A DNA stretch of 38,174 nt, from positions 1 through 38,174 of IMG/VR virus record IMGVR_UViG_3300044591_000931. One strand, written 5' to 3'. The notes beneath the pieces were generated by a model. The model did no database searches. It saw only the letters and a program-made list of their open reading frames with translations, and was not told the origin of the DNA. A program made the position numbers and the translations under genes. Source of the stretch: a virus. Taxonomy: Duplodnaviria > Caudoviricetes. This document shows, in pieces, positions 7,701 through 30,306 of the stretch; the first letter of the stretch is position 1, and the number at the start of each line of letters is the position of its first letter.

Positions 7701-8983
7701 GTGATGAGAAATATACTGTTCCAGCTATATCATCTCCTGATGAAACAACAGAGTTGTCATATGACTATTATCTACCACGTATTGATAAACTTGTGCTGTC
7801 TAAGGATAAAGAATTTAGAGTGATCAAGGGTAAGGCTGCTCCGCAACCACTTCCACCTGCTGATTCTGATGAGGCAATGACACTTTACACACTATATCTC
7901 CCACCATATGTGGCAGATGTTCGTGAAGTTCGTCTAAAATATAACGAGAACAAGCGTTATACGATGAAAGATATCTCTCGAATGGATAAACGTCTTGAGA
8001 GAGTTGAATTCTTCACTTCATTGAATAACGTTGAGAAGTTGGCAATGGCTGACAAGACTCAATATGAAGATGGTACAGAGAAAGAGAAGTATGGTCTAGT
8101 CGGTGAAAACTTCCAAAACTTCAATATTGCAGATTACAAGAGCACAGACTTCAATGTTGCGCTTGAAGGTGGATTTATGATCCCTGCAATGAAGGTCTAT
8201 TCACTTGGCTTGAAGCCAGTCGGTAAGGAAAACACGACTGTAAATAAGAAAACAGTTTGCTTGAGTTATACTGAAGTTCCAGCAATCACTCAAAGTCTTG
8301 CATCTGATAAGGCAGTTTCCGTACAACCATTCTTGTTTGGTCAATTCAACGGCGCAATTACTCTGACACCAGAAACAGATGTTTGGGTATCTGAAACATT
8401 GAAGCCAGAAGTGATCACTGTTCCAGAAAAAATCGTTGAGACTGTAACAGTTATCCGCGAAAAGGTTGTTGAGCCTCCTCCACCTCCAACACTTCCACCA
8501 CCAAGAGCAAATGCTGATGTGGTGATTGCGAAGGATCCAGGTACTGATTTACCACCTGCTACAGATGATGATACTGTTGTCATTGTTCCAGATGGTCCAG
8601 ATCGCCCTATTATCCCAGAGGATCCAGTTCCACCAAATCAGGTACTACCAGATCTGCCATCATTCCCAGAATTCATACTTGAGTATGATCCTTGGTTTAG
8701 AATTTCACCACTCAATTTTGGTGTAAACTTCACGTTTGGCGCAACAGGGTATTCAGCGGGTAATCTATTCAGTAATGGTGGATTGTTCGATGATTCGAAA
8801 TGGGTTCCAGCAGTTACAGAATTTACAGCAGCAGTTGAACCTGACGTTGTATTTGAGTCAACAAATCCAACCAAGACACCACAAATCGTCCTCGCCAATG
8901 GTGGCAGAGGTGCAGAAAGCGGTGGCGGTGGTGCTGGAAGACTTGATAGTGATAGTATAGATTTCAATTATGACAGAGATTAA
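4754..8983 (+). CDS. VrlC/DUF4815-like virion structural protein, N-terminal part
   Basis: N-terminus 'FNIDPYYDDF...KVLFKPGRAVQARELTQIQSILQNQI'; also 'APGADR', 'LARRTFDESGDY', 'YYLPRIDKL', 'RYTMKDI'. Position after gp8. Confidence 0.85.
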   Translation: MEFNIDPYYDDFKENALDNNYMKVLFKPGRAVQARELTQIQSILQNQIKQFGDHVFQDGSPVIGGNMTLDNKCKWLKLEKTYNNIDIDVADFEDRVIRNSSGNVQAKVLATYYPFEGEPTLMVRYVTGNEFTNSDIIKVAGETTEAQANSSNSSGLGTIVSINEGVFYADGYFVKVLDQTAVVSAYSSSANVKIGLEINEEIVDSEIDTTLLDPAQSSFNYQAPGADRFQFSLVLTTRPLDTVVDESKFFELMRVESGQITKQVKYPVYAELEKTLARRTFDESGDYTVKPFRASLVDGINSDEYTIVIEPGKAYVKGFEFETIGSMKLNVEKPRSEADVKRLVETDVDISYGNSIYVTGLRGSSNGFVNIAALERVDVHCVDTSKISIGLGTGADANTYQNTKIGTARVKNFIRYAADPFNADTDSNGAFKLYLSDIDMRPIVTTVAAASDNAKSITLPTSFSALNDAYVNVAVTVLPVRLDALSSISRANINVNTFEVHVGSDLLDAGGGQTKVNVGDVIRINNEVREVVNVPNNNTFLVNTEFTSTFLSTSTAFPLQVFKQTSYSSNVTNQTRLITNYNGSTKKATLDREFDDGAKVGGAVPNSTSVVQFNFKLDHAESFIAGPIVANNQATVSNSSMNVSAYSKYLTGETSTEDTLKQSLVFRLPRTYAKRGSINNCDYVHNKIITNRPPTSPGSGIFQIAGGQGLTTTFETLPWADSTSAIQDNLIVVVRDRGSETGVSNGDILQLDAGDITKTNDSLSIDTGLTGLNSVDIVVFVKQNDAEDKIRRKVLHSNTEYTLTSFNYPTVTTNANTNIELRISPSANIPYGNVDMANGLIFVSNTEFTTVRPGDSISLYVPDVVRVRKVIAGNSTMLPNATVYTDITDHFYIDYGQRDDRYEHAKLILKDGYDSPSAKLLVHVDFYQHIYATGSNVSFFSVDSYSQEEYENGTIPIYTSSTGIVYNLRDCLDFRPTQILGDGDEKYTVPAISSPDETTELSYDYYLPRIDKLVLSKDKEFRVIKGKAAPQPLPPADSDEAMTLYTLYLPPYVADVREVRLKYNENKRYTMKDISRMDKRLERVEFFTSLNNVEKLAMADKTQYEDGTEKEKYGLVGENFQNFNIADYKSTDFNVALEGGFMIPAMKVYSLGLKPVGKENTTVNKKTVCLSYTEVPAITQSLASDKAVSVQPFLFGQFNGAITLTPETDVWVSETLKPEVITVPEKIVETVTVIREKVVEPPPPPTLPPPRANADVVIAKDPGTDLPPATDDDTVVIVPDGPDRPIIPEDPVPPNQVLPDLPSFPEFILEYDPWFRISPLNFGVNFTFGATGYSAGNLFSNGGLFDDSKWVPAVTEFTAAVEPDVVFESTNPTKTPQIVLANGGRGAESGGGGAGRLDSDSIDFNYDRD

Positions 8984-9003: not shown

Positions 9004-12000
9004 ATGGCGATCACAACACAAACTGGTAAAGTTGTCGTAGATACAAACCTTGTCCCATATATTCGTGGGCGAGAAATAGAATTTGTGGCTAATAATCTAA
9101 AGCCATATAAAATCTCACGTATCTTTTTTGACGATGTTGCTGTAAATGGTTTCTGTCAGGCTGGCAATAGAGTTCTCATCGACGCTAAAAAGATTGTTGA
9201 AGTAGATCGAAATAATGCAGCACAAGTTTATCCTGGAGATATTCTATGGCAGGGAACTAGTGCAACGGTCAACACATTCAATGGTTTGGTTCAATCTTAT
9301 GACTCAACCAATAGAACTGTGACCATTCGTCAGTTAGACGGTGATCTTGATGAAAATGCTCAGTTATATTTTCAAAATTCAAGAACAACGATTACCTACT
9401 CAAACTCAAACGTTGTTTCAGTAGTTGATTCTGATACTGCAGACAGATACTATGCTGGTGAGGGTGTTATTTCTCCTCAACTCGGTAATGCATATGCCAC
9501 GGTCATTTCAACCTCTGGTCCAAATCTACTTTATCTAAAGCAAAACTATGTGAACGCCAATGTCTTTCCAGTTGGTGTTGCGCTTTCAGTCGTCGCCACC
9601 AAATACAAACCAGGTGATATTGTTTATCAAACATCTGATGGTGCGCAAAGATATGATCTAGCAACATTCCGTGGTATTGTTCGCTATTTCCATGCCACTG
9701 GACAAGGTATGATCGCAATTGAACCTATCCAAGGTTCGTTCACACAAAACTCAAGCAATACAGATCCTTGTAAGATTTGGAATGCTACTTTACCAAGTGC
9801 AGAAGCACTCTATGCTAATAAAGTTCATTCTCTAACTTTCTCATCTGGAAATACGATTCAGAGTATTCAAAATGTTGCAGTAAATATTGCTGTATCATCA
9901 TATATCCATCGCTCTGGCGTGATTGCGAATACTTACGGTGCAACAGATTTTATTCACGTGAATTCAAATAATGGAAACAATCCATCTAACGCCAATCTAA
10001 TTTACTTTGTAAGTGGAACAGGTGTTGGTGAAGTCAAGAGAGTTTCAGGCATCAACGGTGCAAATCTAACTTTGAATAGTGCATTGAGTTTCTCTCCTGA
10101 CAGCACAACGAAATATTCTATCGGCAATCATGACGTAGATACTTACGGAACAGTTGCTGGGCTTTTCCATATCCCATCTTATTCTGGATTCAAATTCAAG
10201 ACTGGCAATCGTCTCTTCACGATTACAGACACAGCTCGATATAATGATCCAGATTACGGAATGCGCGCTTCTGCAACGTATGCTGCTTCTGGTATTCTAC
10301 AAACTACACAGAGAATTCAAACGACACCAGTTCTACCTCCTGTCGCTGAAACAGAAGGCAGTTCACTAGTTGTTCCTGCATCACCATCAGATCGCCCTGC
10401 AGTTGGAACTCCTGTCAAGCCACCAGTATCTGGATCAAGTGCTTCTACTATTCCAAGAATTCCTCTTGGTGATGGTATGGCTCAAACGTTCTTTACTCCA
10501 AAGCCAAATTCAAATAAACAAGATTACGGTATCTACTGCACCTCTATTGATTTGTTCTTCAAGAGCAAGCCATCAGTTGCAACATACTTCAAAAACTCAA
10601 AGACAATCACACGCGGAAGTCTACAGCTTCCAGTTACAGTGAAGATTGCAGAAGTGCAAAATGGATATCCAACAAAGAATTACCTTGCATCAAAGAGCGT
10701 CAGCACTAAAGACGTACACGTCTCTGATATTCCAAATATCAATGATCCAATGACTGCAACGAAGTTTACTTTCGATGATCCAGTATACTTGGAACCAAAT
10801 AGAGAATATGCTATTCTAGTTGGCTCTGATTCGCCAGACTATGAGTTGTTTATTGCTGAACTTGGAACAGATGTTCTTGGATCATCAACCACGACAACGG
10901 TTAGAATCTCAGAACAGCCATATGCTGGTTCATTCTTCCGATCACAAAACTCATCAACCTGGACGCCATATCAAAATCAAGATTTGATGTTTGTTCTCAA
11001 CAAGGCTGTGTTCGATACTTCAGGTGTTGTAACTTTTGCTCTCGACGCTCCACCAATTGCAAACATTGATCTTGATCGTGTTATGTTGACCTCTGCTGAT
11101 CTCAAATTCCCAGCTGGATTAGTTGACTATTCATTGAAGGGTGTCTACTCAGCAACTCTTGCTCAAGAAACGAATGGCATTGATCTGGATCCATTCAAGA
11201 CAGTAGAGTTCGGAACTCTCTCCGATAAGTCATCTAAGAATTCAATCAATCGACGCAGACTTGTTCAAGGTAACGCTAACAGCTTTATCTTGACTGCTGA
11301 AATGTCATCGACTGATGCAGACGTTTCTCCGATTGTCAACATCGAAAGATTGTCGTTGACTGCTGCAACGTTCTTTATCAATAATGCTGGCTTATCAAAT
11401 ACTAAGATTGCAATCACCAATTTCGGCGCCAAGTATATTTGTTCAAATACTACTTCTGCTGATCCTTTAGGTTCGATTAGTGTTCACGGAAGCACGAACA
11501 ACTCAGTAAATACTGCAGCAATCTCATTTAGAAATCGATGCTATCCATATCCAGCATATAATGTTGGTTTATATGCACTGACGATTAGTGGCGGTAATGG
11601 TACTGGTGCTGCTGGTTTTGCTGTCGCAAATACTGACGGAAGCAATACCATCAGTTCAATCGTCCTATCTCATATCGGTAGCGGATATACCACAACACCA
11701 ACGATCGCTATTCAGGCTCCAACTTTTGCTGGTACGACTGGTGGTACAACGGCATCTGCGGTTGCTTCTGGTGAAGATGGTAAATCTGGCGGTAACATCC
11801 TATCTAAGTATATCACACGCGAAATCGTCCTTGAAGATGGCTTTGAGTCTGGTGACTTGCGTGTGTTCATGGATGCAGTTCGTCCAACAGGTACTGATAT
11901 TCTTGTGTATTACAAAGTCCTATCTGGGGACGATCCAGAAAGAATCTCTGATAAGAGCTGGAAATTGATGAGTAAGGTCAAAGACAATTACTCAAGAAAC

Positions 12001-12195
12001 CCAAATACGTTTATTGGGTTTGAGTTCCGTCCATCTCTAGATGAGAATAGAATCAGTTATATCGAAAACGGTATTTCATATCCTATCGGTGGAACATTCA
12101 AAAATTTCCAAATCAAAGTGTGCTTGATTACTAGTGATGAATCATTGATTCCTAGAGTCAAGAACCTTAGAATCAGTGCTATCCCAGAGGGTTGA
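9004..12195 (+). CDS. VrlC/DUF4815-like virion structural protein, C-terminal part
   Basis: Motifs 'VPYIRGREIEF..NLKP', 'AQTFF', 'TSIDLFF', 'TKFTFDDPVYL', 'QPYAGSFFRSQNSSTWTPYQNQDLMF' and terminal 'FQIKV...PRVKNLRISA'. Confidence 0.8.
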   Translation: MAITTQTGKVVVDTNLVPYIRGREIEFVANNLKPYKISRIFFDDVAVNGFCQAGNRVLIDAKKIVEVDRNNAAQVYPGDILWQGTSATVNTFNGLVQSYDSTNRTVTIRQLDGDLDENAQLYFQNSRTTITYSNSNVVSVVDSDTADRYYAGEGVISPQLGNAYATVISTSGPNLLYLKQNYVNANVFPVGVALSVVATKYKPGDIVYQTSDGAQRYDLATFRGIVRYFHATGQGMIAIEPIQGSFTQNSSNTDPCKIWNATLPSAEALYANKVHSLTFSSGNTIQSIQNVAVNIAVSSYIHRSGVIANTYGATDFIHVNSNNGNNPSNANLIYFVSGTGVGEVKRVSGINGANLTLNSALSFSPDSTTKYSIGNHDVDTYGTVAGLFHIPSYSGFKFKTGNRLFTITDTARYNDPDYGMRASATYAASGILQTTQRIQTTPVLPPVAETEGSSLVVPASPSDRPAVGTPVKPPVSGSSASTIPRIPLGDGMAQTFFTPKPNSNKQDYGIYCTSIDLFFKSKPSVATYFKNSKTITRGSLQLPVTVKIAEVQNGYPTKNYLASKSVSTKDVHVSDIPNINDPMTATKFTFDDPVYLEPNREYAILVGSDSPDYELFIAELGTDVLGSSTTTTVRISEQPYAGSFFRSQNSSTWTPYQNQDLMFVLNKAVFDTSGVVTFALDAPPIANIDLDRVMLTSADLKFPAGLVDYSLKGVYSATLAQETNGIDLDPFKTVEFGTLSDKSSKNSINRRRLVQGNANSFILTAEMSSTDADVSPIVNIERLSLTAATFFINNAGLSNTKIAITNFGAKYICSNTTSADPLGSISVHGSTNNSVNTAAISFRNRCYPYPAYNVGLYALTISGGNGTGAAGFAVANTDGSNTISSIVLSHIGSGYTTTPTIAIQAPTFAGTTGGTTASAVASGEDGKSGGNILSKYITREIVLEDGFESGDLRVFMDAVRPTGTDILVYYKVLSGDDPERISDKSWKLMSKVKDNYSRNPNTFIGFEFRPSLDENRISYIENGISYPIGGTFKNFQIKVCLITSDESLIPRVKNLRISAIPEG

Positions 12196-12425: not shown

Positions 12426-13634
12426 ATGGCAAATACAATAAATGTTTACCTAACAACGGTGTCAAATACGTTCAATCAGTGGCGTATCAACGACAACCTC
12501 ATGGCAAACGACGTGAACGAAATTTGTCGCGGCGACTTCGTCAAGCCTTTTGGCAACGTTGTCATCTCAGAGGGTTACGTTCGCATCGCTAACTCTGCTG
12601 GCGGTGTTATTCTTGACGTCAAAGACGATACGAATATCGATGGAACACTTACTGTCCATAACATAGAAGTAGACAATTCTACAAATCATGTTTATGTTGA
12701 CTGCGGTGATATTGAATTTAGAAGAATGGGCGAAACAGATCTATTCACAGTAAATACAAACACTGCATTCTATGGATCTAACATCACCTTCTCAAACGTT
12801 TCGCATGGTATCATAAACGTCAACGTTGTGAAAGTGTCAATCAATGCTGGTATTGTAAACATTGCAAATACAGAACAGTCCGCAACGCTAAACATTCACC
12901 CAAATACGTTTATCTTTGCAAATGTAAATGTTACTGGAACGTTGAACGTAACAAATAACGTATTTGCATATAATCTAAACGTTGCAAGTAATACATCAAC
13001 AGGTAATCTAATTGTTCGTAATCTTGCGAACATTGCTAATGCAAATATCATCAATGCGTATATTCGCACGTTGACTGTTGAAGACCCTATTCTTGCCCCA
13101 GCAGTGACCGATAGCGACAAATATGTTCTTCGATTCACTTCTTCTTCAGGTGGTGATGGATACTTCCGTGTTCGTCGCGGTCAAAGTGTTGGAACAGCAA
13201 ATGCTGATCTCCACTGGCATGAATCAGATGGTGCTTGGAAAATTGAATACAATAATCTTCCAGCCAACGTTGTCATGGGTAACGTCACTGCAAACTTCAA
13301 GGCAACTAAAGACTTTATCTCTTCAAGCACAGTATCAGGTGCAGTGAGCGTAGACTTGAGTTCATCAAATTGGTTCAAGTATACTCTCAATGGACCAACG
13401 ACGTTTACGTTTACCAATGCACCATCTAACGGTCTTGCAGTGACGTTCTCGCTTATTATCATCCAAGATGGAACTGGCGGAAGAACCTATACCTTTGCCA
13501 ATACTGTTTATTGGTCTGGTGGCGCAATTCCTCCAAAAACTACAGGATCAAGTAGTAAAGATCTTTGGACATTCACATCGTATGACGGCGGCTCAACGTA
13601 TGTTGGTACATTGGCAGTAAAAGACTTCAGATAA
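12426..13634 (+). CDS. Tail fibre / fibre carrier protein with an Asn/Val-rich beta shaft and a C-terminal adaptor domain
   Basis: N-terminal 'NTFNQWRINDN' fibre-anchor-like motif and beta-rich shaft. Its C-terminal ~100 aa are clearly paralogous to the C-terminus of 24226..30306. Confidence 0.7.
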   Translation: MANTINVYLTTVSNTFNQWRINDNLMANDVNEICRGDFVKPFGNVVISEGYVRIANSAGGVILDVKDDTNIDGTLTVHNIEVDNSTNHVYVDCGDIEFRRMGETDLFTVNTNTAFYGSNITFSNVSHGIINVNVVKVSINAGIVNIANTEQSATLNIHPNTFIFANVNVTGTLNVTNNVFAYNLNVASNTSTGNLIVRNLANIANANIINAYIRTLTVEDPILAPAVTDSDKYVLRFTSSSGGDGYFRVRRGQSVGTANADLHWHESDGAWKIEYNNLPANVVMGNVTANFKATKDFISSSTVSGAVSVDLSSSNWFKYTLNGPTTFTFTNAPSNGLAVTFSLIIIQDGTGGRTYTFANTVYWSGGAIPPKTTGSSSKDLWTFTSYDGGSTYVGTLAVKDFR

Positions 13635-13640
13635 GATACA

Positions 13641-15917
13641 ATGCCAAAACGTATTGATGAATTAGAAAAAACATGGACGGCAACTCGTGGGTCGACTGTG
13701 TTCAACACATATGGAAATATGTTTGTTCCATATGGAAGAAATCGTCTTTACGTTTCAGGTCGCGGTGGATCTGGTAACTGTCTAGTTCCTGGTAATATTG
13801 CAACTTATACAGGCAACAGCGCGGCATCATATAACTCTGGTGTTGCTGCAACATACAATCCAGGTTTTACTGCTTCCTATACTGGTAACAATGCCAATTA
13901 CAATTTTGGCAACCCAGCATCGTATACTGGAAATACTGAAATTCCAGCCAGCGGTGGTAATAACGCAATCTATAATCCTTGTGGCACTGGCTTCAATCCT
14001 GCAGTCATTGTGGGGTATAACTCAGGAAGCACAGGCGGCGCACAATACAATGCTGGCAACATCACAGGTTACAACACAACAAACATTGCTGGTTATAATA
14101 CTGGTGTTGGTACAAGTTATAACGCTGCAACTCCTGGCGGTTATAATACAAGAAACATTAGCGGATACAATGCTGGTAGTGCAACATATACCACAGGCAA
14201 CCCAGCAACATATGTTGGTGGCTCGAACAATATCACTGCCTATTCTGGCAATAGCGCAAACTATAATACTGGTAATCCTGCAACCTATAATGCAGGAAAT
14301 GTTGTAACAGTTCCAACTAATATATTTGGTGGAATGTCGCCAGTATATAATCCAGGTGGAATTGCAAACTACAATCCATCAACAGTAAATTGGTATGGTG
14401 TTATCGTTGAAACTTTCTTCGATGAAGGTTACTTTTATTATCAACAAATAGCATTTGAAGGAACAGGAACATCAGTTGGTTGCCCAACTGAATTTACAGC
14501 AGAAGCAGTCACGCCAAGCAACTTCCCAAACTTTCCTGGGTTTGTTGTTGGTGGTGGGCAAATGGTCTACTTCTATAATATATACTATGAGTGTTCTCCA
14601 GCAACGCCTGGAACTGCCAATTATAATCCAGGAACACTAGTTTATAATCCTGGAAACCCAGCATCATATAATGCAACAAATATTTCTGGATATAATCCAG
14701 GCTCAGCAAGTGCTTACAACGTCGGAACACCATCAACTTATAGCGGCAATTTTATCGGTGGATATACTGGTAATAATGCAAACTATAATACAGGTAATCC
14801 TTCAGGATTCACTGCTGGTAATGCAATCACTTATACTGATAATAATGCAAATTATAATCAAGGAAATGCAGTTTACAACGCTGGTAATATAAACAGCTTT
14901 GTTGGCAACTCAGCAGTCTTCACTCCAGGAAATCCATTTACTGATTGTTCGTTTGCAACAATCAATGGTTATAATCCTCCAGGCGCATCAACACCGAATT
15001 ACAATACAGGCAATCCAGCATCATTCACGCCAACTACTATTGGTGGCTTCAATGTGGGTAATGCTGTTTATAATGAGGGGGTTGGTGACTATAACACTGG
15101 AAACCCAGCAAGTTTTACTGGAAACTTCGCAGCAACGTTCAATGCTCCAGGAGAGCAGTTGTATAATACAGGAAATATTGCATCATATACTGGTAACACT
15201 GGAACAGGTGCGTATAATCCAGGTTCAATCGCAAACTATGTTGCAGGAAATATCTCCAGTTATACAGAAGGAAATCCAGCAAGTTATAGCGGAAATAATA
15301 TTTCTGGATATAATGCTGCTAACAATGCTAACTTTAGTCCTGGAGCTGCCACATATAATGCAGGTAATGTGGCAACTTATAATGCAGGATTTGCAGCAAC
15401 ATATAATGAACCAACAATTTCTGGTTATAACGCTCCAGCACCAAGTGGTGGTGGCGGTGGTGGATGTTGCTTCGCTGGTGACACGCTCATTGCAATGGCT
15501 GACGGTTCAACCAAGACCATTGAGACTATTCAAGTTGGAGATGAAATTTTATCTTACAATCCAGAAACAGGTCAGCACGAGACGAATGAAGTTTCAGAAA
15601 TCATTACTCGTGTGAATAGAGTCATGTTTGAGTATATCTTGGAAAATAGCGTTGCAATCAGAGCATCTGATGACCACCCATTCTTCGTTATCGGAAAGGG
15701 TTATGCTTCTATGAATCCAAATTTGACAATGCAAGGATATAGATCTTTGGAGGAAGTTGCGCAAGTTCAAGTTGGAGATAGTTTTGTAGACAAGAATGGT
15801 AATGCTATACGCATCAACGCAATTGTCTCAATCAACTATCCATATACAGTCTATACATTCAATAATAAGTATAAGTCTAGCCCAAATTTCTATGCTAATG
15901 GGGTTCTAACTTACTAA
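13641..15917 (+). CDS. YN-repeat fibre protein, N-terminal half, with a C-terminal Hint domain
   Basis: N-cap 'FVPYGRNRLYVSGRGGSGN' shared with 19049..21649; 7-8 aa repeats such as 'NPATYNAG'; ends in a Hint domain. Confidence 0.75.
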   Translation: MPKRIDELEKTWTATRGSTVFNTYGNMFVPYGRNRLYVSGRGGSGNCLVPGNIATYTGNSAASYNSGVAATYNPGFTASYTGNNANYNFGNPASYTGNTEIPASGGNNAIYNPCGTGFNPAVIVGYNSGSTGGAQYNAGNITGYNTTNIAGYNTGVGTSYNAATPGGYNTRNISGYNAGSATYTTGNPATYVGGSNNITAYSGNSANYNTGNPATYNAGNVVTVPTNIFGGMSPVYNPGGIANYNPSTVNWYGVIVETFFDEGYFYYQQIAFEGTGTSVGCPTEFTAEAVTPSNFPNFPGFVVGGGQMVYFYNIYYECSPATPGTANYNPGTLVYNPGNPASYNATNISGYNPGSASAYNVGTPSTYSGNFIGGYTGNNANYNTGNPSGFTAGNAITYTDNNANYNQGNAVYNAGNINSFVGNSAVFTPGNPFTDCSFATINGYNPPGASTPNYNTGNPASFTPTTIGGFNVGNAVYNEGVGDYNTGNPASFTGNFAATFNAPGEQLYNTGNIASYTGNTGTGAYNPGSIANYVAGNISSYTEGNPASYSGNNISGYNAANNANFSPGAATYNAGNVATYNAGFAATYNEPTISGYNAPAPSGGGGGGCCFAGDTLIAMADGSTKTIETIQVGDEILSYNPETGQHETNEVSEIITRVNRVMFEYILENSVAIRASDDHPFFVIGKGYASMNPNLTMQGYRSLEEVAQVQVGDSFVDKNGNAIRINAIVSINYPYTVYTFNNKYKSSPNFYANGVLTY
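15468..15914 (+). other. Hint (intein-like) autoprocessing domain, no endonuclease, lacking the terminal His-Asn
   Basis: Block A 'CFAGDTLIAMADGSTKTIETIQVGDEILSY', block B 'ASDDHPFF', block F/G 'VYTF...NFYANGVLTY*'. Confidence 0.88.
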
Positions 15918-17437
15918 TGTCTACTGAAATCTACTCACCAGGAAATCCTGCAACATACAATCCAAGCACTGGTGGAAACCTTTCAGGCTATAATACAGGT
16001 GTAGCATCATATACTGGCAATTTCATGACATACAATCCACCGTCAGGTGGTGGATTGGTTTATTGGAGCGCAACATTTTTTGTCAATGATAATGGATTTG
16101 CTCAAGTTTTTGAAGAAGATCCTGTTCAAATTGGATTTCAATATTATCCTCAATTATTGACAACGCCAACGCTGCCAAGCCCAACTACTGCTTATGGTAA
16201 TCCAGGAGCAGGTCCACATGCGGCTATTGGACTAAACATTTACATAACATATACCGCATTAGAGGGTGGTCCGCCGACACCAGGTAATTGGACTGGTGAT
16301 TATAATGCAGGATCTCTTGCAGGTTATAACGATAACACAGCAACTTACAATCCAGTATTGTCAGGTGGAAATCCTGCAACGTACAATCCACCAACAATCA
16401 CAGGCTATAATCCACCAGCATTTACACCAGGAAACGCAAACTATACGCCAGGAAACGTTGCGACATTCAATCCAACAAATATCGCAACTTATAATCCAGT
16501 AAATATTTCTGGTTATAACGAGCCAACAATCTCAGGATATAATCCTGCTGGTGGTGGTGTAAGTTGGGTTGGAACAACATACTATTCATTGGACTTGGTG
16601 AGTGGCGGTAACATTGGTTCTGGCTCTTTCACGACCAGCGGAAATAGCGCAAACTGCCCAACACCAACTAGTTTCTATGGTCCAATGCCAGGAACTCCTG
16701 AAGTTATTGAGTACAATATAACAAACTACGATTGCACTCCTCTACCAAGCGGCAGCGCTAATTATAATACTGGTGCTCCAGCAAGTTACATAGGAAACGT
16801 TGCGCTTTATAATCCTCCTTCAGTAGGAAATTATTCTGGTAATAGTGTAAATTACAATCCAGGTGTTGCTTCAACATATACTGGAAACTTCTCTGCAGGA
16901 TTTGCTGCAGGTGGTAACGTTGCATCATACAACACTGGTAATCCTGGAACATATAATCCAACAAATATTGGTGGATATTCTGGAAATACATTGGCTGGAT
17001 ACACAGGTAACAACGCAGGATATAATACAGGAAGCCCAGCATCTTATACTGGTAACAACATTGCTGGATACAACGCTGCACCACCTCCATCATATAATGT
17101 TGGAAATCCAGCGTCTTATACTTCTAACTTCGTTTCTGGTTACAATTCTGGTAATCCAGCAACGTATGTTGGCAACAATATCGCTTCATACTCTGGTAAC
17201 TTTGTCGCAACTTATAATCCTGGAAGCGCAAGCACGTATAACTTCCCAATCCCAGGAACTCCAGGAGAACCTGGATATGCGTTTGGTGTATACTTCCCAG
17301 GTGGTGGCGTTTGTGCTCCAGGCGTTTACGTCAATGAGCAAGAAGTCAGCTACTACTTTGAGAACCAAGAGATTGATTATCGCGATCACCCAATTGAAGT
17401 TCCTGCAGGTGGACAAATAGTTGTAAGAATCGAATAA
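15917..17437 (+). CDS. YN-repeat fibre protein, C-terminal half
   Basis: Start overlaps the upstream stop (TAATG). Same repeats. C-cap 'GVYFPGG...EVPAGGQIVVRIE' shared with 19049..21649. Confidence 0.75.
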   Translation: MSTEIYSPGNPATYNPSTGGNLSGYNTGVASYTGNFMTYNPPSGGGLVYWSATFFVNDNGFAQVFEEDPVQIGFQYYPQLLTTPTLPSPTTAYGNPGAGPHAAIGLNIYITYTALEGGPPTPGNWTGDYNAGSLAGYNDNTATYNPVLSGGNPATYNPPTITGYNPPAFTPGNANYTPGNVATFNPTNIATYNPVNISGYNEPTISGYNPAGGGVSWVGTTYYSLDLVSGGNIGSGSFTTSGNSANCPTPTSFYGPMPGTPEVIEYNITNYDCTPLPSGSANYNTGAPASYIGNVALYNPPSVGNYSGNSVNYNPGVASTYTGNFSAGFAAGGNVASYNTGNPGTYNPTNIGGYSGNTLAGYTGNNAGYNTGSPASYTGNNIAGYNAAPPPSYNVGNPASYTSNFVSGYNSGNPATYVGNNIASYSGNFVATYNPGSASTYNFPIPGTPGEPGYAFGVYFPGGGVCAPGVYVNEQEVSYYFENQEIDYRDHPIEVPAGGQIVVRIE

Positions 17438-17449: not shown

Positions 17450-17476
17450 AGTTGATCATGTAAAGTGGAGTTCGTT

Positions 17477-18040
17477 ATGCCTCAAGTTATCAAATATAAT
17501 CGTGTTCTATCCAAATTCGCTGTCATATCGGACTTCTTGACACAAGAAGAAGTTGATGCTGTGACTTCTTTAGAAAAGAAACTAATGTTTTCTAAAGACC
17601 AGATAAATGGCAAGAATAAAGCAGACATCGCGATTCTCCCGCCAAATCAAGACACTCAGTGGCTTTTTGATAAGTTTTCTGCGTTGGTTGGTCGAATCAA
17701 TATCGATTTCTTCATGTACGATATTGATGGGTTTGATGCATTCGCATATACCAAATATAAGAAAGGGCAAGAATGTGGTTGGCATTACGATGTCGACTTT
17801 GCATTTCTAAATTGGGAACGTAAAATCTCGGCATCAATTATGCTCACAGACCCAGAAGAATATTTGGGCGGTGAGATTGAGATCATGGGCACGGGTGATC
17901 CTGGAGAAGTGATGCCAATCAAACCAAATTTGGGCAGCATAGTTTTCCATGCTCCATGGATGCCATCACGAATCACAACAGTCACTTCTGGAACGCGCAA
18001 GTCGTTGAACGTGTGGGTGATGGGAAAGAGAGGTTGCTAA
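17477..18040 (+). CDS. 2OG-Fe(II) oxygenase (prolyl-hydroxylase/PKHD-like), distal His replaced by Ser
   Basis: 'WHYD', 'RKISASIMLTDPEEYLGGE', 'MPSRITTVTSGTRKSLNVWVMG'. GGAG precedes ATG 17477. Confidence 0.85.
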   Translation: MPQVIKYNRVLSKFAVISDFLTQEEVDAVTSLEKKLMFSKDQINGKNKADIAILPPNQDTQWLFDKFSALVGRINIDFFMYDIDGFDAFAYTKYKKGQECGWHYDVDFAFLNWERKISASIMLTDPEEYLGGEIEIMGTGDPGEVMPIKPNLGSIVFHAPWMPSRITTVTSGTRKSLNVWVMGKRGC

Positions 18041-19002
18041 TGAAAATTTTTGTCAGTATTGTCTCGTACAGAGACCCACTTCTCCACCAAACTCTACGCA
18101 ATATGATGGAGATGCAATCTCAACTGACAAAAGTGACCTATGGCGTATTTGAACAAACTGACTACCCAGATAGTCTAGAGGCGAAGTATCCAGATCTTGC
18201 TCAAAATAAAAACGTTCGCTATAAAAGAATTGATGCCAAATATTCAGACGGAGTCGGTTGGGCAAGACATCTGAATTCAATTCAACTTGACGATGAAGAG
18301 TTCTATTATCAAGTCGACTCTCATATGCTATTTGATAAGAATTGGGATCGTTATTTGATCAATGATTTCAAACTTGGAATGCAGCAGCATCAAACCGATA
18401 GAATTATCATCGATGCAAATTGCGGCTCATTCAGAATGCAAGACGACGGTACTCCATTTATTGATCGTCATGGAAGCATTACAGTAAAGGCTGGATATTG
18501 GTCTTTCCACGATAACTATATTCTTGGTGCTCACGGCGAGTTTCGAGAGGCGACTAAAGATTTCTTACACCCAACAATTCACCTATTTGCTGGAAACTTT
18601 TTCACACATAGCGATTGGCTAAGAAATGTCGGAATGAATCCTCGCATCTTCTTTGAGGGTGAGGAGCAGTATATGACTCTTGCGTCTATCGCTGCAGGAT
18701 ATAAACTCTGCGCACCTACGCAGATTCATTGCTATCATCTAATCGACACGCATCGATATATCACGAAACAAGATGTAAGCCAAGTTGTTTCTCATGAACA
18801 ATTGCAGAGAAATAAAGAAAAGTCGAAGAAAGAATTTCGTATTTTCTTAGATAGTTTCAGCGATGATTTCTTCGAAGAATATCGAAAATACTCTGGCGTC
18901 GACTACATCAATCGAAAACTTGAGAATAGAGCCATCTCGAGAAGTATTCTTTTGCCTCCAGATGTCGTGAATGACTGGGAAATCCCCGACCGATACGATT
19001 GA
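18040..19002 (+). CDS. GlcNAc-transferase family glycosyltransferase (GT60 / Skp1-hydroxyproline GlcNAc transferase Gnt1-like)
   Basis: 'IFVSIVSYRDP', 'GVGWARH', 'EEFYYQVDSHMLFDKNWD', 'FEGEE'. Start is coupled to the oxygenase stop by TAATG. Confidence 0.8.
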   Translation: MKIFVSIVSYRDPLLHQTLRNMMEMQSQLTKVTYGVFEQTDYPDSLEAKYPDLAQNKNVRYKRIDAKYSDGVGWARHLNSIQLDDEEFYYQVDSHMLFDKNWDRYLINDFKLGMQQHQTDRIIIDANCGSFRMQDDGTPFIDRHGSITVKAGYWSFHDNYILGAHGEFREATKDFLHPTIHLFAGNFFTHSDWLRNVGMNPRIFFEGEEQYMTLASIAAGYKLCAPTQIHCYHLIDTHRYITKQDVSQVVSHEQLQRNKEKSKKEFRIFLDSFSDDFFEEYRKYSGVDYINRKLENRAISRSILLPPDVVNDWEIPDRYD

Positions 19003-19048: not shown

Positions 19049-21649
19049 ATGCCCTTACACACAGACCTGTTGAAAAGCTGGATCGGTTCGGCATTTCGAA
19101 ACACAACCACTTTCAATAATACATCCAGCATAACGATTCCATATGGTCGTTTCAATGCTTCAGTTTCTGGACGCGCAGGCACAGGTAATAATGCGACTCC
19201 AGGAAACATTGCCACATACACTGGGAACAGTGCATCAACCTACAACTCGGGTAGTCCAGCGACGTATAACGCAGGGACAACGGCTTCCTATTCTGGAAAT
19301 AACGCTGCGACATATAACGCTGGCAATCCTGCGTCTTACAACCCTCCAGTCCCAGCGTCGTATACAGGTAATAGCGCCAACTATAATGCAGGCAATCCAG
19401 CCTCGTATAGTGGAAATAACACCGCATCATATACTGGAAACAACGCGAACTACAACGCAGGAAGTGCGGCTTCGTATAGCGGAAATAATATAGCATCTTA
19501 CAATCCACGCAACGTTTCTGGATATAATACGGGCAATATTGCTTCTTACAATCCAACGAACATTGCTGGCTACTCTGGCAACAGTGCCAACTATAACGCA
19601 GGAACTCCTGCGACATATAATCCAAGAAACGTAGCAGCATATAACTCTGGTAGTGCGACGTACAATACTGGAAGCCCAGCATCATATACTGGTAACAATC
19701 TAGCAGCGTATAATCCTGGTTCTCCCAACTATAATACTGGAAGCCCAGCATCATACACACCTACTAATATTTCTGGATACTCTGGTAACAGTGCGAACTA
19801 TAATGCTGGTAATGCCGCATCATATAATCCAAGAAACGTAGCAGCATATAATCCAGGCTCAGCAAACTATAACGTAGGAACTGCAGCCAGTTATAATCCT
19901 GGAGCGATTGCATCCTATAACCCAAGAAATATCGCAGGATATTCTGGCAATAACGCCAACTATAATCCAGGCACTGTTGCATCATACAATCCAAGAAACA
20001 TCGCTGGTTATTCTGGTAATAACGCAAACTTCACTCCTGGAAATATTGCATCATACAATCCAAGAAACATCGCTGGTTATTCTGGTAATAACGCAAACTT
20101 CACTCCTGGAAATATTGCATCATACAATCCACAAAACATCGCTGGATATTCTGGCAATACACAAAATTTGAATGCTCCAACTGAATCAAATTGGTCAGCT
20201 GGTATGTATTTTAGTAATACTGGATACCTCATGATTGGTGAATATGAGGAAATGTACAACAATGCGAATGGATATGAAGTGTTCCCTTATTTTGGTACTG
20301 GCACAACTTTGGACACTGGAAATCGTGTTTTCAACACCACGGCTGGTCCAGTTAGTGTTACTGGATTTTCTCCAAATTTTGGAGGCGGCACACTAACTGT
20401 TGATTTCACCAATTTCCCAGGATCACCAGGAAATCCAACAGGTGTATACAATCCAGGTTCAGCAAACTACAACTCTGGAAACGCAGCAACGTATAATTCT
20501 CCATCAGTAGCTGGCTATAATCCAGGTTCAGCAAACTACAACTCTGGAAACGCAGCAACGTATAATTCTCCATCAGTAGCTGGCTATAATCCAGGCTCAG
20601 CAAATTATAATGCAGGAAATATTGCATCATACAATCCGCGAAACATCGCAGCCTATAATGCTGGATCTGCGAACTACAATGCTGGCACAGCAGCATCTTA
20701 TTCTGGCAATAATATCGCATCATATAACCCACGAAACATCGCTGGATATTCTGGTAACAGTGCCAACTACAATACAGGTAATATTGCGTCTTACAATCCA
20801 AGAAACGTAGCTGCATATAATCCTGGTTCGGCGAATTACAATACTGGATCACCTGCTTCTTATTCTGGCAATAATATCGCAGCGTACACTGGAAATAATG
20901 CTAATTATAATACAGGTAGCCCAGCAAGTTACACACCAACAAATATTTCTGGTTATGTTGGAAATAATGCAAACTACAATGCTGGAACGCCAGCCACGTA
21001 CAATCCACGAAACGTAGCAGCATACAATCCAGGTTCAGCAAATTACAATGTTGGTTCCGCTGCCACATATACTGGTAATAATGTTGCAGGATATAACGCA
21101 GGAACCGCAGCAACATATAATCCTGGAAGCATTGCTTCGTATTCTGGTAACACTCTTGCTAATTATAACGCTGGTAATCCTGCGACATATAATCCAGGAA
21201 ATCCTGCAACTTATACAGGCAACACCATTGCCAATTATAATGCTGGCAATCCAGCAAGTTATAATCCGCCAGTTCCAGCAACATACACTGGTAATAACGT
21301 AGCATCATACAATGCAGGAAATCCTGCAACATATAATCCAAGAAATCCAGCATCATATACAGGCAATACTGCAGCAACATATAACGTTGGTAATGTTGCG
21401 TCATATAATTCTCCAGTTCTTGGCACTTCTGGCGCACCAACAAATGTTCTTGGTGTATATTTCCCAGGCGGCGATGGAGCAACTGCCAATTATAATGCAG
21501 GACCAGCAAATACAATTTCTGGATATAACGCAGGTCAATTAGCACCATATGTGCCACCAACTGCAATAGACACAAATGTATATCCCGATTCAGCCAACTA
21601 TCCAGTCGTTGTGCCAACAGGTGGTCAAATAGTTGTAAAGATCGACTAA
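19049..21649 (+). CDS. YN-repeat fibre protein, unsplit paralog (N-cap, repeat arm, central domain, repeat arm, C-cap)
   Basis: N-cap 'ITIPYGRFNASVSGRAGTGN', C-cap 'GVYFPGG...VVVPTGGQIVVKID', long YN repeat arms and a unique central segment at ~20170-20440. Confidence 0.75.
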   Translation: MPLHTDLLKSWIGSAFRNTTTFNNTSSITIPYGRFNASVSGRAGTGNNATPGNIATYTGNSASTYNSGSPATYNAGTTASYSGNNAATYNAGNPASYNPPVPASYTGNSANYNAGNPASYSGNNTASYTGNNANYNAGSAASYSGNNIASYNPRNVSGYNTGNIASYNPTNIAGYSGNSANYNAGTPATYNPRNVAAYNSGSATYNTGSPASYTGNNLAAYNPGSPNYNTGSPASYTPTNISGYSGNSANYNAGNAASYNPRNVAAYNPGSANYNVGTAASYNPGAIASYNPRNIAGYSGNNANYNPGTVASYNPRNIAGYSGNNANFTPGNIASYNPRNIAGYSGNNANFTPGNIASYNPQNIAGYSGNTQNLNAPTESNWSAGMYFSNTGYLMIGEYEEMYNNANGYEVFPYFGTGTTLDTGNRVFNTTAGPVSVTGFSPNFGGGTLTVDFTNFPGSPGNPTGVYNPGSANYNSGNAATYNSPSVAGYNPGSANYNSGNAATYNSPSVAGYNPGSANYNAGNIASYNPRNIAAYNAGSANYNAGTAASYSGNNIASYNPRNIAGYSGNSANYNTGNIASYNPRNVAAYNPGSANYNTGSPASYSGNNIAAYTGNNANYNTGSPASYTPTNISGYVGNNANYNAGTPATYNPRNVAAYNPGSANYNVGSAATYTGNNVAGYNAGTAATYNPGSIASYSGNTLANYNAGNPATYNPGNPATYTGNTIANYNAGNPASYNPPVPATYTGNNVASYNAGNPATYNPRNPASYTGNTAATYNVGNVASYNSPVLGTSGAPTNVLGVYFPGGDGATANYNAGPANTISGYNAGQLAPYVPPTAIDTNVYPDSANYPVVVPTGGQIVVKID
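19977..20131 (+). repeat. Exact 69-bp (23-aa) tandem repeat, about 2.2 copies
   Basis: 'atcatacaatcca...' recurs at 19981, 20050 and 20119; unit IASYNPRNIAGYSGNNANFTPGN. Confidence 0.9.
20450..20595 (+). repeat. Exact 69-bp (23-aa) tandem repeat, about 2.1 copies
   Basis: 'aatccagg' recurs at 20450, 20519 and 20588; unit NPGSANYNSGNAATYNSPSVAGY. Confidence 0.9.
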
Positions 21650-21690: not shown

Positions 21691-22290
21691 ATGCCATTCA
21701 AAGTGCAAAAATACGCTAAGACATTACAACAGTACTGCGTAGCATCAAACGTTTTTACTGAAGAAGAATGTGACAAGATTGTTGATCTTGAAGACTTGCA
21801 AAAGTTTCAAAGAGGTGCTGTCGGCGGTGGCGCTGGTGGCGCAGTAAACAAAAAAGCTCGCGACAGTGATATCATGTGGATCATGCATGATCAAAACTCA
21901 GATTGGATCTTTCAAAAATTTGGTGCTCTTCTTTCGCAAGTAAATAACGACCATTTCATGTATAACATCGATGGTTTTGATAATTTTCAATACACAGTAT
22001 ACAAAGCAAAGAACAAACAACATTATGATTGGCACATGGATATGGATACCACTAGTGCCAATTATATTCGCAAGATTAGCGCATCAGTTCTGCTCACCGA
22101 TCCAGATGACTATCAAGGTGGTGAATTTCAATTAGTGCCTCATGGTCGAGTTGACAATCCAATTATTATGAAACCCAAACGCGGAGATGTTATCTTCTTT
22201 TCTTCGTTCATGCCACATCGCGTTGCTCCAGTGACTTCTGGTGTTCGTAAATCATTAGTATGTTGGGTCATGGGTGAGAGGACTAATTGA
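21691..22290 (+). CDS. 2OG-Fe(II) oxygenase (prolyl-hydroxylase/PKHD-like), intact HxD...H triad
   Basis: 'WHMD', 'RKISASVLLTDPDDYQGGEF', 'FMPHRVAPVTSGVRKSLVCWVMG'. Confidence 0.9.
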   Translation: MPFKVQKYAKTLQQYCVASNVFTEEECDKIVDLEDLQKFQRGAVGGGAGGAVNKKARDSDIMWIMHDQNSDWIFQKFGALLSQVNNDHFMYNIDGFDNFQYTVYKAKNKQHYDWHMDMDTTSANYIRKISASVLLTDPDDYQGGEFQLVPHGRVDNPIIMKPKRGDVIFFSSFMPHRVAPVTSGVRKSLVCWVMGERTN

Positions 22291-22291
22291 T

Positions 22292-23038
22292 ATGAAAAAT
22301 TGGCTCAAGTTCTGGGGCAATGATGTAATGGAATTCTATTGCCATCCAGATTTCGATGGCGTGATTCCAGAACCTCGCCCTGCTGTGAAGTATCTTCCCA
22401 AATGGTTCAAAGATCTTGCGCCAACATTCGACGCAGGCAAGCGCGACGTTTTCGGCAATCCAACCATGACAGCAAAGAAGTGTTTACCGATGCTTGATGC
22501 TATGTCTCTTGGATTTACAATTCCTCTTGCTGGTGATCTTCATGTAACTACGAATCACAACTGCACTCAAATCGAAATTATAAATCCACCTGGAATTGTT
22601 GTTGCTGAATTCCATGATGCTGGTCAAGTCGGTGGTAAAGCAGCGATGGGCGTCAAGCACGGTAATCCCGTGAAGTTCATCAATCGTTGGGTCATCAAAA
22701 CAAAACCAGGTTGGTCAACGTTGTTTATTCCACCAATGAATCATTTCGATCAGCCATTCCGCTGCCTTGCTGGATATGTTGATACTGATGCATATCCGAA
22801 AGAAGTAAACTTTCCTGCGGCTTGGCTTGTGCCTGATTTCGACGGAAGTCTGCCAGCAGGAACTCCTTTGGTGACTGCAATTCCAGTCAAACGTGGCTCA
22901 TTCAATAATCGTAAACCAAAAGTTCGTTCAATGACTTCGGGTGAGAAGAAGCATATTGAAAAGATTCAAAAGGCTCAGCATACAAGAACTCATCACTATA
23001 CTTGGGAATTGAGAAAGAGAAAACATGAAGATGAATAA
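22292..23038 (+). CDS. Conserved hypothetical phage protein, DUF6065-like (possible dUTPase-like fold)
   Basis: 'PKWFK', 'KKCLPMLDAMSLGFTIP', 'IKTKPGWSTLF', 'GYVDTD', 'GTPLVTAIP'. ATG 22292 directly follows the upstream stop. Confidence 0.65.
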   Translation: MKNWLKFWGNDVMEFYCHPDFDGVIPEPRPAVKYLPKWFKDLAPTFDAGKRDVFGNPTMTAKKCLPMLDAMSLGFTIPLAGDLHVTTNHNCTQIEIINPPGIVVAEFHDAGQVGGKAAMGVKHGNPVKFINRWVIKTKPGWSTLFIPPMNHFDQPFRCLAGYVDTDAYPKEVNFPAAWLVPDFDGSLPAGTPLVTAIPVKRGSFNNRKPKVRSMTSGEKKHIEKIQKAQHTRTHHYTWELRKRKHEDE

Positions 23039-23831
23039 ATTATTCAATTTCTTTTCAAAAGAAACTCCTGATTTAGAATTTGTTGATTCAAGTCGACAGG
23101 TTTACACTCACTATCCAATTCTTCTTGCGAAAGACGTAAAACCGTTCTTCAAAGAGTTTCAGGAAAAAGACCAGGGCAGTTATAACTTTCCAGGATGTCC
23201 TGGAATGCACGATTATTCACGAATGGGTTATTTGATCACTGCATGGGTTGACATTCATGTCAAAGCAAACAAAGCAGGCACTGCAATTCGTTATGGTACA
23301 TCTTTAGCAGATAAGGCAGCAAAGCCAAAGCCTCATCCATTTGAGAATCCAATTCAAATAAATCCACCAGAACTTCCACTGAAAGAACCATTTCCAATGT
23401 CAACAGATGTGACAAATGGTCTGTTTACATTCGGTGATGATATCAAACCAACAGCATTCAATATGCCAGGTCCATGGAAGATCTTCGGAAAGAAAAACGT
23501 TTCTGCGTTATTGCTCCCTGCTTTCTATCATTGTCCATATCTTGAAGATTTATATCTTTATCCTGGGGTTGTGGATTATAGAGAGTTTACGACTGCCAAT
23601 GTAATTTTCTCACCAAAGAGAAGGATAGATCTCACGATCCCTGCAGGAACCCCTCTCCTTCAGGTGATTCCATTCAAGACGACTGATGACTTTTCTGCCT
23701 CATTTGGTCCAGGAACGGTCGAGCAATTAGATTCCCATAAAAGTCCTAAAAAATTCTACGAAGGGAACTGGTATCGTAAGTATTATATGATCAAGAAGAA
23801 GTTCAAACTGGAGAAATATACAGGAGATTGA
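23025..23831 (+). CDS. Conserved hypothetical phage protein, paralog of 22292..23038
   Basis: 'CPGMHDYSRMGYLI', 'PGVVDY', 'IPAGTPLLQVIPF'. An alternative start at 23031 is possible. Confidence 0.65.
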   Translation: MKMNKLFNFFSKETPDLEFVDSSRQVYTHYPILLAKDVKPFFKEFQEKDQGSYNFPGCPGMHDYSRMGYLITAWVDIHVKANKAGTAIRYGTSLADKAAKPKPHPFENPIQINPPELPLKEPFPMSTDVTNGLFTFGDDIKPTAFNMPGPWKIFGKKNVSALLLPAFYHCPYLEDLYLYPGVVDYREFTTANVIFSPKRRIDLTIPAGTPLLQVIPFKTTDDFSASFGPGTVEQLDSHKSPKKFYEGNWYRKYYMIKKKFKLEKYTGD

Positions 23832-30200: not shown

Positions 30201-30306
30201 TCCTCCCGCAACAACTGCAGCAAATGCTCGTGACTTATGGACGTTTATCACCTATGATGGTGGTACAACGTACTGGGGAACGTTGACTATGAAGGACGCT
30301 AAATAG
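24226..30306 (+). CDS. Large collagen-like tail fibre / appendage with interspersed globular domains
   Basis: Several long Gly-X-Y tracts (GPQ, GPS, GPT), a gp34-like domain, duplicated internal domains, the 'LDADLLDG' fibre motif, a lectin-like domain and a C-terminal adaptor domain. Confidence 0.85.
30298..30305 (+). promoter_or_regulatory. Possible late-promoter variant GCTAAATA overlapping the fibre stop codon
   Basis: The CTAAATA core also occurs at 19014, 21646 and 33387, each time at a gene boundary. Confidence 0.4.

Follow-up and report, generated by a model that had tools for sequence, protein, structure and literature searches.

ORF A, the first half of a split fibre-like gene, ends in a Hint domain that carries Cys1 and the block B His and stops at a tyrosine. 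The window analysed here is the whole stretch of viral DNA, 38,174 nucleotides in length, from an uncultured lake phage. Judged from their sequences, this domain and its relatives, which we call Tyr-stop Hints, form a large, coherent, and widespread group, limited to the half reaction and borne by tail-region proteins of phages. By its residues, the domain would be cleavage-only, as an earlier note on this DNA had proposed; that is, the N-terminal half reaction alone would be possible. Our leading reading, held tentatively, is that the Hint undergoes an N–S acyl shift and is then released by water or a thiol. The parts of the locus are listed in Table 1.

Table 1. Features of the ORF A–ORF B locus and its neighbours, in positions of the window.
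Feature	Position	Strand	Remarks
Tail fibre gene directly upstream of ORF A	12426..13634	+	PHROG 9017, E 3e-16
ORF A	13641..15917	+	758 aa; N-cap, branch 1 with tip domain, arm 2 outgoing strand, Gly linker, terminal Hint
N-cap (half of split base domain)	13641..13790	+	within ORF A
Branch 1	13980..14948	+	putative hairpin, closed by Cys114 and Cys436 (putative disulfide)
Branch 1 variable tip domain	about 14388-14615	+	Cys281, Cys318 (putative disulfides)
Arm 2 outgoing strand	14970..15446	+	20 repeat units; final peptide YNEPTISGYN (15402-15431)
Gly linker and Cys at -1	15447..15467	+	Cys609 at 15465
Tyr-stop Hint domain	15468..15914	+	A610-758, 149 residues
TAATG stop/start overlap	15915..15919	+	ORF A/ORF B junction
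ORF B	15917..17437	+	506 aa; short outgoing extension, tip domain 2, return strand with domain 3, return strand to base, C-cap
Tip domain 2	16052..16291	+	in ORF B; putative true turn of arm 2
Domain 3	16547..16762	+	Cys247, Cys273; putative side insert in return strand, after YNEPTISGYN (16514-16543)
C-cap (half of base domain)	17255..17437	+	within ORF B
2OG-Fe(II) oxygenase and PF11397 GlcNAc transferase	17465..19002	+	between ORF B and P
Intact paralog P	19049..21649	+	866 aa; single-chain hairpin, 41 + 42 units flanking one tip domain

The Tyr-Stop Hint Domain and Its Clade

The Hint is entered through PSGGGGGGC-CF and ends NGVLTY-stop with neither His-Asn nor a C-extein, just as had been described. 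Its landmarks are Cys1 (Cys610, at 15468), Ser B7 (Ser676, 15666), His B10 (His679, 15675), Thr F4 (15855), and a Tyr at G6 (15912); there is no Asn. The proposed check against Hint and PT-HINT profiles gave a divided answer: PT-HINT scores 28.0 bits, marginally above its cut-off of 27.7, whereas Pfam Hint, at 28.2, falls below 29.7. TIGR01445 scores 29.8 bits (cut-off 24.5), and PF13403 (Hint_2) reaches 20.5 bits over residues 1–32 only, below its cut-off of 28.4. The nearest solved matches, across the whole length, are the BIL domains 2LWY and BIL2, with E 1.4e-7 for the single sequence and 4e-13 for a profile against BIL2. Foldseek places BIL structures at ranks 1–5 (E 3e-5), with a low-confidence model as the query; the predicted structures of the Hint are poor, with a pLDDT of 37 from single-sequence and 56 from four-sequence input. 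TIGR01445, the BIL matches, and Foldseek place the domain in the Hint superfamily, which is marked by similarity in blocks A, B, F, and G. A search of the ESM Atlas found Hint-type viral clusters for the domain and no usable match for P. The Hint is under purifying selection, to judge by dN/dS ratios of 0.04 (window against L009) and 0.09 (L011 against L012).

The window Hint falls in a clade of 35 clusters, all ending Tyr-stop (SH-aLRT 99). Cys1, His B10, a Ser or Thr at B7, and the terminal Tyr are present in 35 of 35, Cys(-1) in 34, and Cys(-4) in 26; F4 is Thr in 33 instead of the usual Asp, and the C-terminal His-Asn is absent from every member. In an alignment of 39 sequences, Cys1 and His B10 belong to the seven invariant columns, as would be expected of a functional active site. 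The Hint is always the final domain, on fibre-like or other tail-region proteins, five of the 35 Hint-carrying proteins having Gly_rich_2 domains, and it caps many unrelated phage proteins that have no partner gene. The fetched loci contain 20 distinct Hints of this type, and 15 of these lack a repeat-protein partner. In the ORF that follows the Hint, residue 2 is Ala in four, Ser, Tyr, and Glu in three each, Lys and Thr in two each, and Ile and Leu in one each, with none in the last case. Such variety indicates that there is no conserved acceptor in the next ORF. The cultured-phage collection searched holds no Tyr-stop Hint, its best match (31%) being to ordinary inteins; of 77 loci in prokaryote genomes, the best has a Tyr-stop Hint within a phage-like stretch (L168). 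Our literature search found no description of such phage Hint caps.

A Gene Split in All Nine Relatives

The coordinates and sizes of ORF A, ORF B, and P hold as first given, as does the view that A and B together equal one protein, with the caps divided between them as in intact P. The first 50 residues of P match the start of A alone (E 5e-10) and its last 75 match the end of B (E 3e-9), the remaining matches being repeat background; thus, A has only the N-cap and B only the C-cap. Cys47 (13779, in the N-cap) and Cys466 (17312, in the C-cap) are present in split-type copies only, and P has neither Cys nor Hint. ORF B has no match in Pfam, PHROG, or NCBIfam, and nothing useful matched the cap regions in Pfam or among solved structures. 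From the gene context, the A/B protein is likely a virion tail appendage. The upstream tail fibre is a possible attachment point for the A/B cap, and the oxygenase and GlcNAc transferase are candidate modifiers of the Pro-rich fibre.

The one-base overlap of the two ORFs and the Met-Ser start of B, which resembles a C-extein, could point to an assembly error, to recent mutation of a normal intein, or to two ORFs fused by recoding, a group of explanations whose probability we put close to negligible. TAATG-type overlaps occur at four of the 22 gene junctions examined within the window, that between A and B being one. Assembled contigs, as distinct from raw reads, cross the junction unchanged in four of four runs and then in three of four further runs, seven of eight in total; the eighth, RNA run X20, covers only 15400–15481 and stops short of it. 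Assembly error is rejected on these contigs. Across related genomes, the junction is identical in L001 and L002, and the gene is split in nine of nine relatives and fused in none. The frame offset, -1 in the window and +1 in L121, argues against a conserved frameshift, which is also rejected, and the Tyr-stop ending, being a trait of the whole clade, does not suit a recent mutation.

In the same slot, five of the nine relatives have a Tyr-stop Hint, three a plain Gly/Pro tail that ends the ORF at the same split, and one (L036) a very divergent domain that has Ser1 and lacks the block B His. Across these sequences the Hint slot is exchangeable. The Hint-likeness of the L036 domain rests solely on a larger profile comparison (hhalign probability 87.5%), for hhalign with small alignments gives 16%, the Hint profile built here gives 10.6 bits against 9.0 for the best shuffle, and Pfam, NCBIfam, and PDB gave no match. 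Other cassettes vary as well: domain 3 of ORF B is replaced by other sequence in L001, and in L002 a cassette similar to tip domain 2 forms the tip of P, so tip cassettes are exchanged between paralogs.

The Hint may then be one more exchangeable cassette, like the variable tip domains, retained uncleaved for display or binding. The exchange of tips, the divergent occupant of the L036 slot, and the top Pfam score of the Hint, which is to AXH (48 bits, cut-off 33), a non-catalytic binding domain, all speak for such a role. The invariance of Cys1 and His B10 speaks against it, and we regard it as unlikely.

A Predicted Hairpin of Two Chains

A and B are predicted to zip antiparallel into one branched hairpin made of two chains, with A444–602 probably paired with B about 169–384. 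The arm lengths, the mirrored irregularities, and a matched four-unit duplication found in both A and B of L002 together indicate this arrangement. Arm lengths covary with r 0.97 in seven P-type proteins; two of 11 proteins (L029 and L035), for which the analysis gave no tip gap, were left out of the arm-length set. The repeat units of L002 were counted by eye, and the pairing rule was derived from the same sequences on which it was scored. A complex prediction of the caps, A1–112 with B385–506, lends weak support, scoring 0.40 against 0.00 for the best control, with runs that agree in at least 61% of contacts and a partner pLDDT of at least 50; in the benchmark for this score, values of at most 0.60 were given to 18 of 157 solved complexes and to both of the 2 among 215 mismatches that passed.

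The pairing bears on two positions named in the earlier note. The Hint had been assigned a "tip" position, and the slot that it occupies is indeed exchangeable and ends an arm, but this slot would lie about five repeat units before the true turn. YNEPTISGYN, the sole 10-mer common to A and B, does precede both the Hint linker and domain 3; the exact peptide is absent before the B domain in L001 and L002. A special meaning for it is rejected, and domain 3, taken before as an ordinary tip, would be a side insert.

By the same geometry, the N-terminus of B is predicted to adjoin the end of the A arm, beside the thioester, so that local aminolysis could occur. The free N-terminal amine of B would attack the thioester and staple A and B into one continuous chain. 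Splicing by type A BILs is proposed to proceed through amine attack on a thioester (PMC4031507), and the residue after Met is small in all five Hint-bearing partners (Ser, Ser, Ala, Ala, and Thr). Yet the same architecture stands without a Hint in three of the nine relatives, most Tyr-stop Hints in the fetched loci have no such partner, and a long Pro-rich leader opens the partner in L121. Ser varies among the partners and is found after Met at four of six Hint-free breaks too; it is rejected as a conserved nucleophile, and ligation to the partner chain through Ser, as had been suggested, does not hold as a general mechanism. We consider stapling highly doubtful.

Proposed Release and Fate of the Thioester

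In the favoured reading, the repeat strands of A and B would zip antiparallel and the caps would join, possibly by a Cys47–Cys466 disulfide. Cys610, aided by Ser B7 and His B10, would turn the Cys609–Cys610 peptide bond into a thioester, which would be discharged by water or a cell thiol; the 149-residue Hint would depart, and the ORF A product would then end Gly6-Cys. A disulfide from the Cys at -1 to Cys1 may serve as a latch on this reaction, or that Cys may tether the cut domain. PMC4031507 assigns residues of the Cys1, B7, and B10 type to the N-terminal splicing step, and PMC7765530 describes thiolysis of the thioester as an established N-terminal cleavage of inteins. With no Asn and no C-extein, splicing would be impossible, hence the proposed discharge by water or thiol. 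Thr at F4 in place of Asp may slow the N-terminal step.

The fibre can hold together without a Hint. The conserved Cys(-1) and terminal Tyr are left unexplained by plain release, and so is the strong selection on a self-removing domain, since much the same product could be had from a stop codon. The host proteins are so diverse that the domain makes a poor candidate for a general chaperone.

In another reading, for which the conservation of Cys(-1), Cys(-4), and the terminal Tyr across the clade speaks, the Hint activates the C-terminus so that a specific acceptor outside the protein can take it. The domain would be retained on the virion, with a disulfide of Cys(-1) or Cys(-4) as its latch, and the fibre end would be passed to a small molecule or to an amine on the host surface as a covalent tether. 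Its constant place as the final domain of tail-region proteins is in keeping with this, and there are precedents: BIL2, the closest solved relative, couples its N-extein to a lysine in a second protein (PMC8616854), Cys1 is known to be trapped by disulfides (PMC7765530), and thioester adhesins bind hosts covalently (PMC4450167). On the other side, no acceptor-recognition region follows the Hint as it does in Hedgehog, and three relatives have no Hint in the slot. The cytoplasm, where phages assemble, is reducing and thiol-rich, so the thioester could discharge early, during assembly. We rate transfer to an outside acceptor as rather unlikely.

Relation to Known Systems

Type A BILs (Clostridium thermocellum BIL, PDB 2LWY; Tetrahymena BUBL1 BIL2, PDB 6TMM and 6Y75) are the closest in kind. 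They share with the window Hint Cys1, the block B His, the absence of an endonuclease (149 residues here), and a setting within a hypervariable stretch of a protein that is not itself conserved, the slot varying among the nine relatives. In contrast, the window Hint lacks His-Asn, the block F His, and a C-extein and has the Tyr-stop, the conserved Cys(-1), and the phage tail-region setting. It is not of type B, given the low PF13403 score and a block G scaffold that aligns to BIL2. The Hedgehog Hog domain performs the N–S acyl shift only (PMC7664689), as the window Hint would by its residues; in the latter, the stop codon comes directly after the Hint, with no sterol-recognition region, and the Pfam Hint score is below cut-off. 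Class 1 mini-inteins and thiol-cleavable tags also have blocks A and B intact (Cys1 or Ser1, Thr or Ser at B7, and His B10), and the window Hint would be a natural counterpart of the tags, which cleave N-terminally when a thiol is added (PMC7765530). Unlike them, the window Hint has no F4 Asp, F13 His, G6 His, G7 Asn, or same-chain +1 Cys, Ser, or Thr, ending instead Thr-Tyr-stop, and it does not lie inside a conserved enzyme. A split, trans-splicing intein is rejected, for B opens with repeats and has no intein match. Pre-toxin HINT domains differ in having a C-terminal cargo; toxin release is rejected, the Hint having no same-chain cargo and B being without matches.

Domains of the Peptidase S74 type are C-terminal self-releasing chaperones of phage fibres. 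The Hint would likewise be a C-terminal domain that removes itself from a tail appendage, but it differs in fold and chemistry, has no S74 match, is optional, and gives no sign of a folding role. Adhesins of the T-even gp38 type (S16 gp38; PMC6851490) also have a gene placed after the fibre gene and hypervariable distal segments, and the Gly_rich_2 domains of some Hint-carrying proteins are a further likeness. However, the A/B protein has for its body a long predicted hairpin of Tyr-Asn repeats rather than a polyglycine sandwich. In such adhesins an attachment domain caps a fibre trimer; an N-cap profile from the A/B family matched no solved structure.

Implications

It is tempting, if speculative and on balance improbable, to see the Tyr-stop Hints as virion-borne, redox-latched thioester warheads, swappable on the branched two-chain appendages of freshwater phages, which bond the host surface covalently or staple chains; they would be the first covalent phage adhesins. 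The repeat-protein architecture is of note as well, for the products of two or three genes seem to join as a single branched hairpin whose tips can be exchanged. If the Hint merely releases itself, it would be a natural thioester tag; if a specific acceptor exists, covalent chemistry would enter phage adsorption or virion maturation.

Integrity and setting of the split protein

The earlier note described one repeat protein divided between two genes, A and its partner B, with an intein-like Hint domain ending A, and an intact paralog, P. Re-reading the sequence confirmed the coordinates of all three, the caps, the linker, the catalytic residues and the shared peptide; the split protein with its terminal Hint is real. 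Contigs span the A/B junction unaltered in 4 of 4 and 3 of 4 runs, and the junction is identical in the relatives L001 (97% DNA identity) and L002 (74–84%). No A/B fusion occurs among nine distinct relatives showing the junction. In the window, 4 of 22 gene junctions examined are one-base stop/start overlaps, which makes the overlap unremarkable in itself.

The window is a T4-like phage region for baseplate, fibre and neck. The runs holding it are lake-water metagenomes, and 19 of the 24 listed contain at least half of its words. A follows a tail-fibre gene, and B is separated from P by oxygenase and glycosyltransferase genes. Family profile searches gave no match for A, B or P outside the Hint, so the label "fibre" or "appendage" rests on context. 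A 2OG-Fe(II) oxygenase gene follows each repeat gene. Beside the oxygenases, in an order conserved among relatives, stand two phrog_7084 genes and one for a PF11397 GlcNAc transferase; the Pro-rich arms could be hydroxylated and glycosylated by these enzymes. A DUF4815/phrog_358 protein is likewise divided between two genes, the first ending in a Gly-rich stretch and an acidic tail that resemble Hint-free breaks. Two fibre genes share a similar domain at the C-terminal end. There are thus as many of them as repeat proteins (A+B and P), and one repeat protein might sit on each fibre.

Locations of features in the window and in related loci
Feature	Location	Remark
A	13641-15917	
B	15917-17437	
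P	19049-21649	
Hint of A	15468-15914	
Tip cassettes	14388-14615, 16052-16291, 16547-16762, 20150-20440	tip 1 (A), tip 2 (B), domain 3 (B), P
Oxygenase, GlcNAc transferase and phrog_7084 genes	17465-19002, 21691-23831	
DUF4815/phrog_358 genes	4754-8983, 9004-12195	
Fibre genes	12426-13634, 24226-30306	
L036-type domain copies	L036:128-550, L036:1338-1766, L246:2977-3411, L247:2977-3405	
Further Tyr-stop Hint caps	L046:3545-4417	
Further Tyr-stop Hint caps		L062, L064, L134

A clade of Hint domains ending in Tyr

Searching 1.8 billion cluster representatives yielded 4979 matches. Among the best 150, 135 proteins contain 211 full domains, of which 144 have His-Asn, 35 stop early and 32 are of other kinds. 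In this best-150 sample, the early-stop domains terminate two residues past block G position 4, all 35 end in Tyr, and they form one clade with the query Hint (SH-aLRT 99, quick tree). Cys1, His B10 and Ser/Thr B7 are present in all 35, Cys at −1 in 34, Thr at F4 in 33 and Cys at −4 in 26. Over the same best 150 matches, Cys at −1 precedes 57 of 67 domains lacking His-Asn, against 34 of 144 having it. Purifying selection acts on the Hint (dN/dS 0.04 and 0.09 in the two unsaturated comparisons having both kinds of change).

Hosts of the clade include Gly_rich_2 proteins, S8 peptidases and short fibre-neighbour proteins. Five of 20 distinct Tyr-stop-type Hints, picked by pattern from fetched loci (a few more fell outside that pattern), have a repeat-protein partner; downstream of the others lie unrelated genes or none. 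In viral contigs, proteins capped by a Tyr-stop Hint further include a probable tail-tip protein and several of S8 subtilase-like type. Many relatives (P0003, P0004, P0009, P0018 and others) carry 2–7 tandem Hint domains joined by His-Asn-Lys, the last often without His-Asn.

Predicted chemistry

The Hint keeps the residue set for the N–S shift and has lost the whole Asn-cyclisation set. Established intein chemistry (PMC4031507, PMC7664689, PMC7765530) has such a set permitting a thioester, not splicing. A thioester would form at Cys1 by N–S shift, and splicing would be absent. Among known domains the type A BILs (2LWY, BIL2) come closest; they are defined by His-Asn, whose absence keeps the Hint out of that class. 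The Hint would work like the first step of Hedgehog, but without the Hedgehog acceptor region. In literature largely outside the subscription journals, searches turned up no account of terminal Hints on phage fibres; PMC3556154 and PMC5259590 concern ordinary inteins.

We tentatively favour water or a cell thiol as the attacker, at somewhat below an even chance, given the lack of a conserved acceptor and a fibre that manages without the Hint. Against such release stand the conserved Cys at −1, the conserved terminal Tyr and the strong selection on the Hint. These features keep two alternatives alive, both of which we consider unlikely: attack by a specific acceptor, and retention of the Hint on the protein.

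Predicted hairpin architecture

The repeat protein is predicted to fold as a hairpin. In seven intact P-type proteins, the arms flanking the central domain differ by 0–2 repeat units, and a longer arm on one side goes with a longer one on the other (r 0.97; 0.94 on adding two more distant proteins; 2 of 11 proteins, without a clear tip, were left out). Read antiparallel, seven-residue units lie opposite eight-residue Ile/Val units, with 24–36 matches versus 16–19 in parallel and 17–20 after shuffling; the pairing p-values are too favourable, since the rule was derived from the very sequences scored. More telling are mirrored extra units, read by eye: six of the seven proteins have one on both arms at equal distance from the tip, and the seventh on neither.

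Under the same rule, A444-602 pairs with B169-384, and L002 has four additional units in A and four complementary ones in B. A cap Cys is present in 12/12 split-type N-caps, 10/10 split-type C-caps and 0/11 complete intact proteins; the pattern, though from one lineage, suggests an interchain disulfide. Complex prediction of the A/B cap regions (0.40, best control 0.00) gives weak support. In the inferred register, the outgoing strand would contain the break and Hint, some five units short of tip domain 2. The return strand would have domain 3 as a side insert, and the end of the A arm would adjoin the B N-terminus. The geometry here permits the Hint to staple A to B, which we regard as improbable, but stapling to a partner cannot be the function of the clade.

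Exchangeable domains at the break and tips

In nine distinct relatives the end of the A arm has three states: the Hint type of the window, no Hint, or a different domain. This Hint type occurs in five (L001, L002 and L121, ending in Thr-Tyr; L011 and L012, ending in Val-Gly). A three-gene split without Hint is found in L010, L124 and L125, with acidic tails rich in Pro/Gly at the ends. P0001 and P0005 are middle pieces without caps, terminating in a Tyr-stop Hint. L036 has the different domain at both breaks; this domain begins with Ser, lacks the block B His and carries a tail after its terminal His-Asn. The product of the middle gene of L036 is almost identical to P0005 as far as the Gly linker, beyond which P0005 has the Tyr-stop Hint. 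The L036-type domain, which matches the Hint in hhalign (probability 87.5%) and weakly in two other comparisons, is probably a divergent Hint. It recurs on two unrelated fibre-neighbour proteins. The family has Ser1, no block B His, two conserved Cys in block F, a His-Asn end and a position after poly-Gly, and was not detected by Pfam or NCBIfam.

The tip cassettes are hypervariable and common to the paralogs: the P tip of L002 resembles B tip 2, that of L036 resembles A tip 1, and L001 has another sequence in place of domain 3. These cassettes are likely host-range modules.
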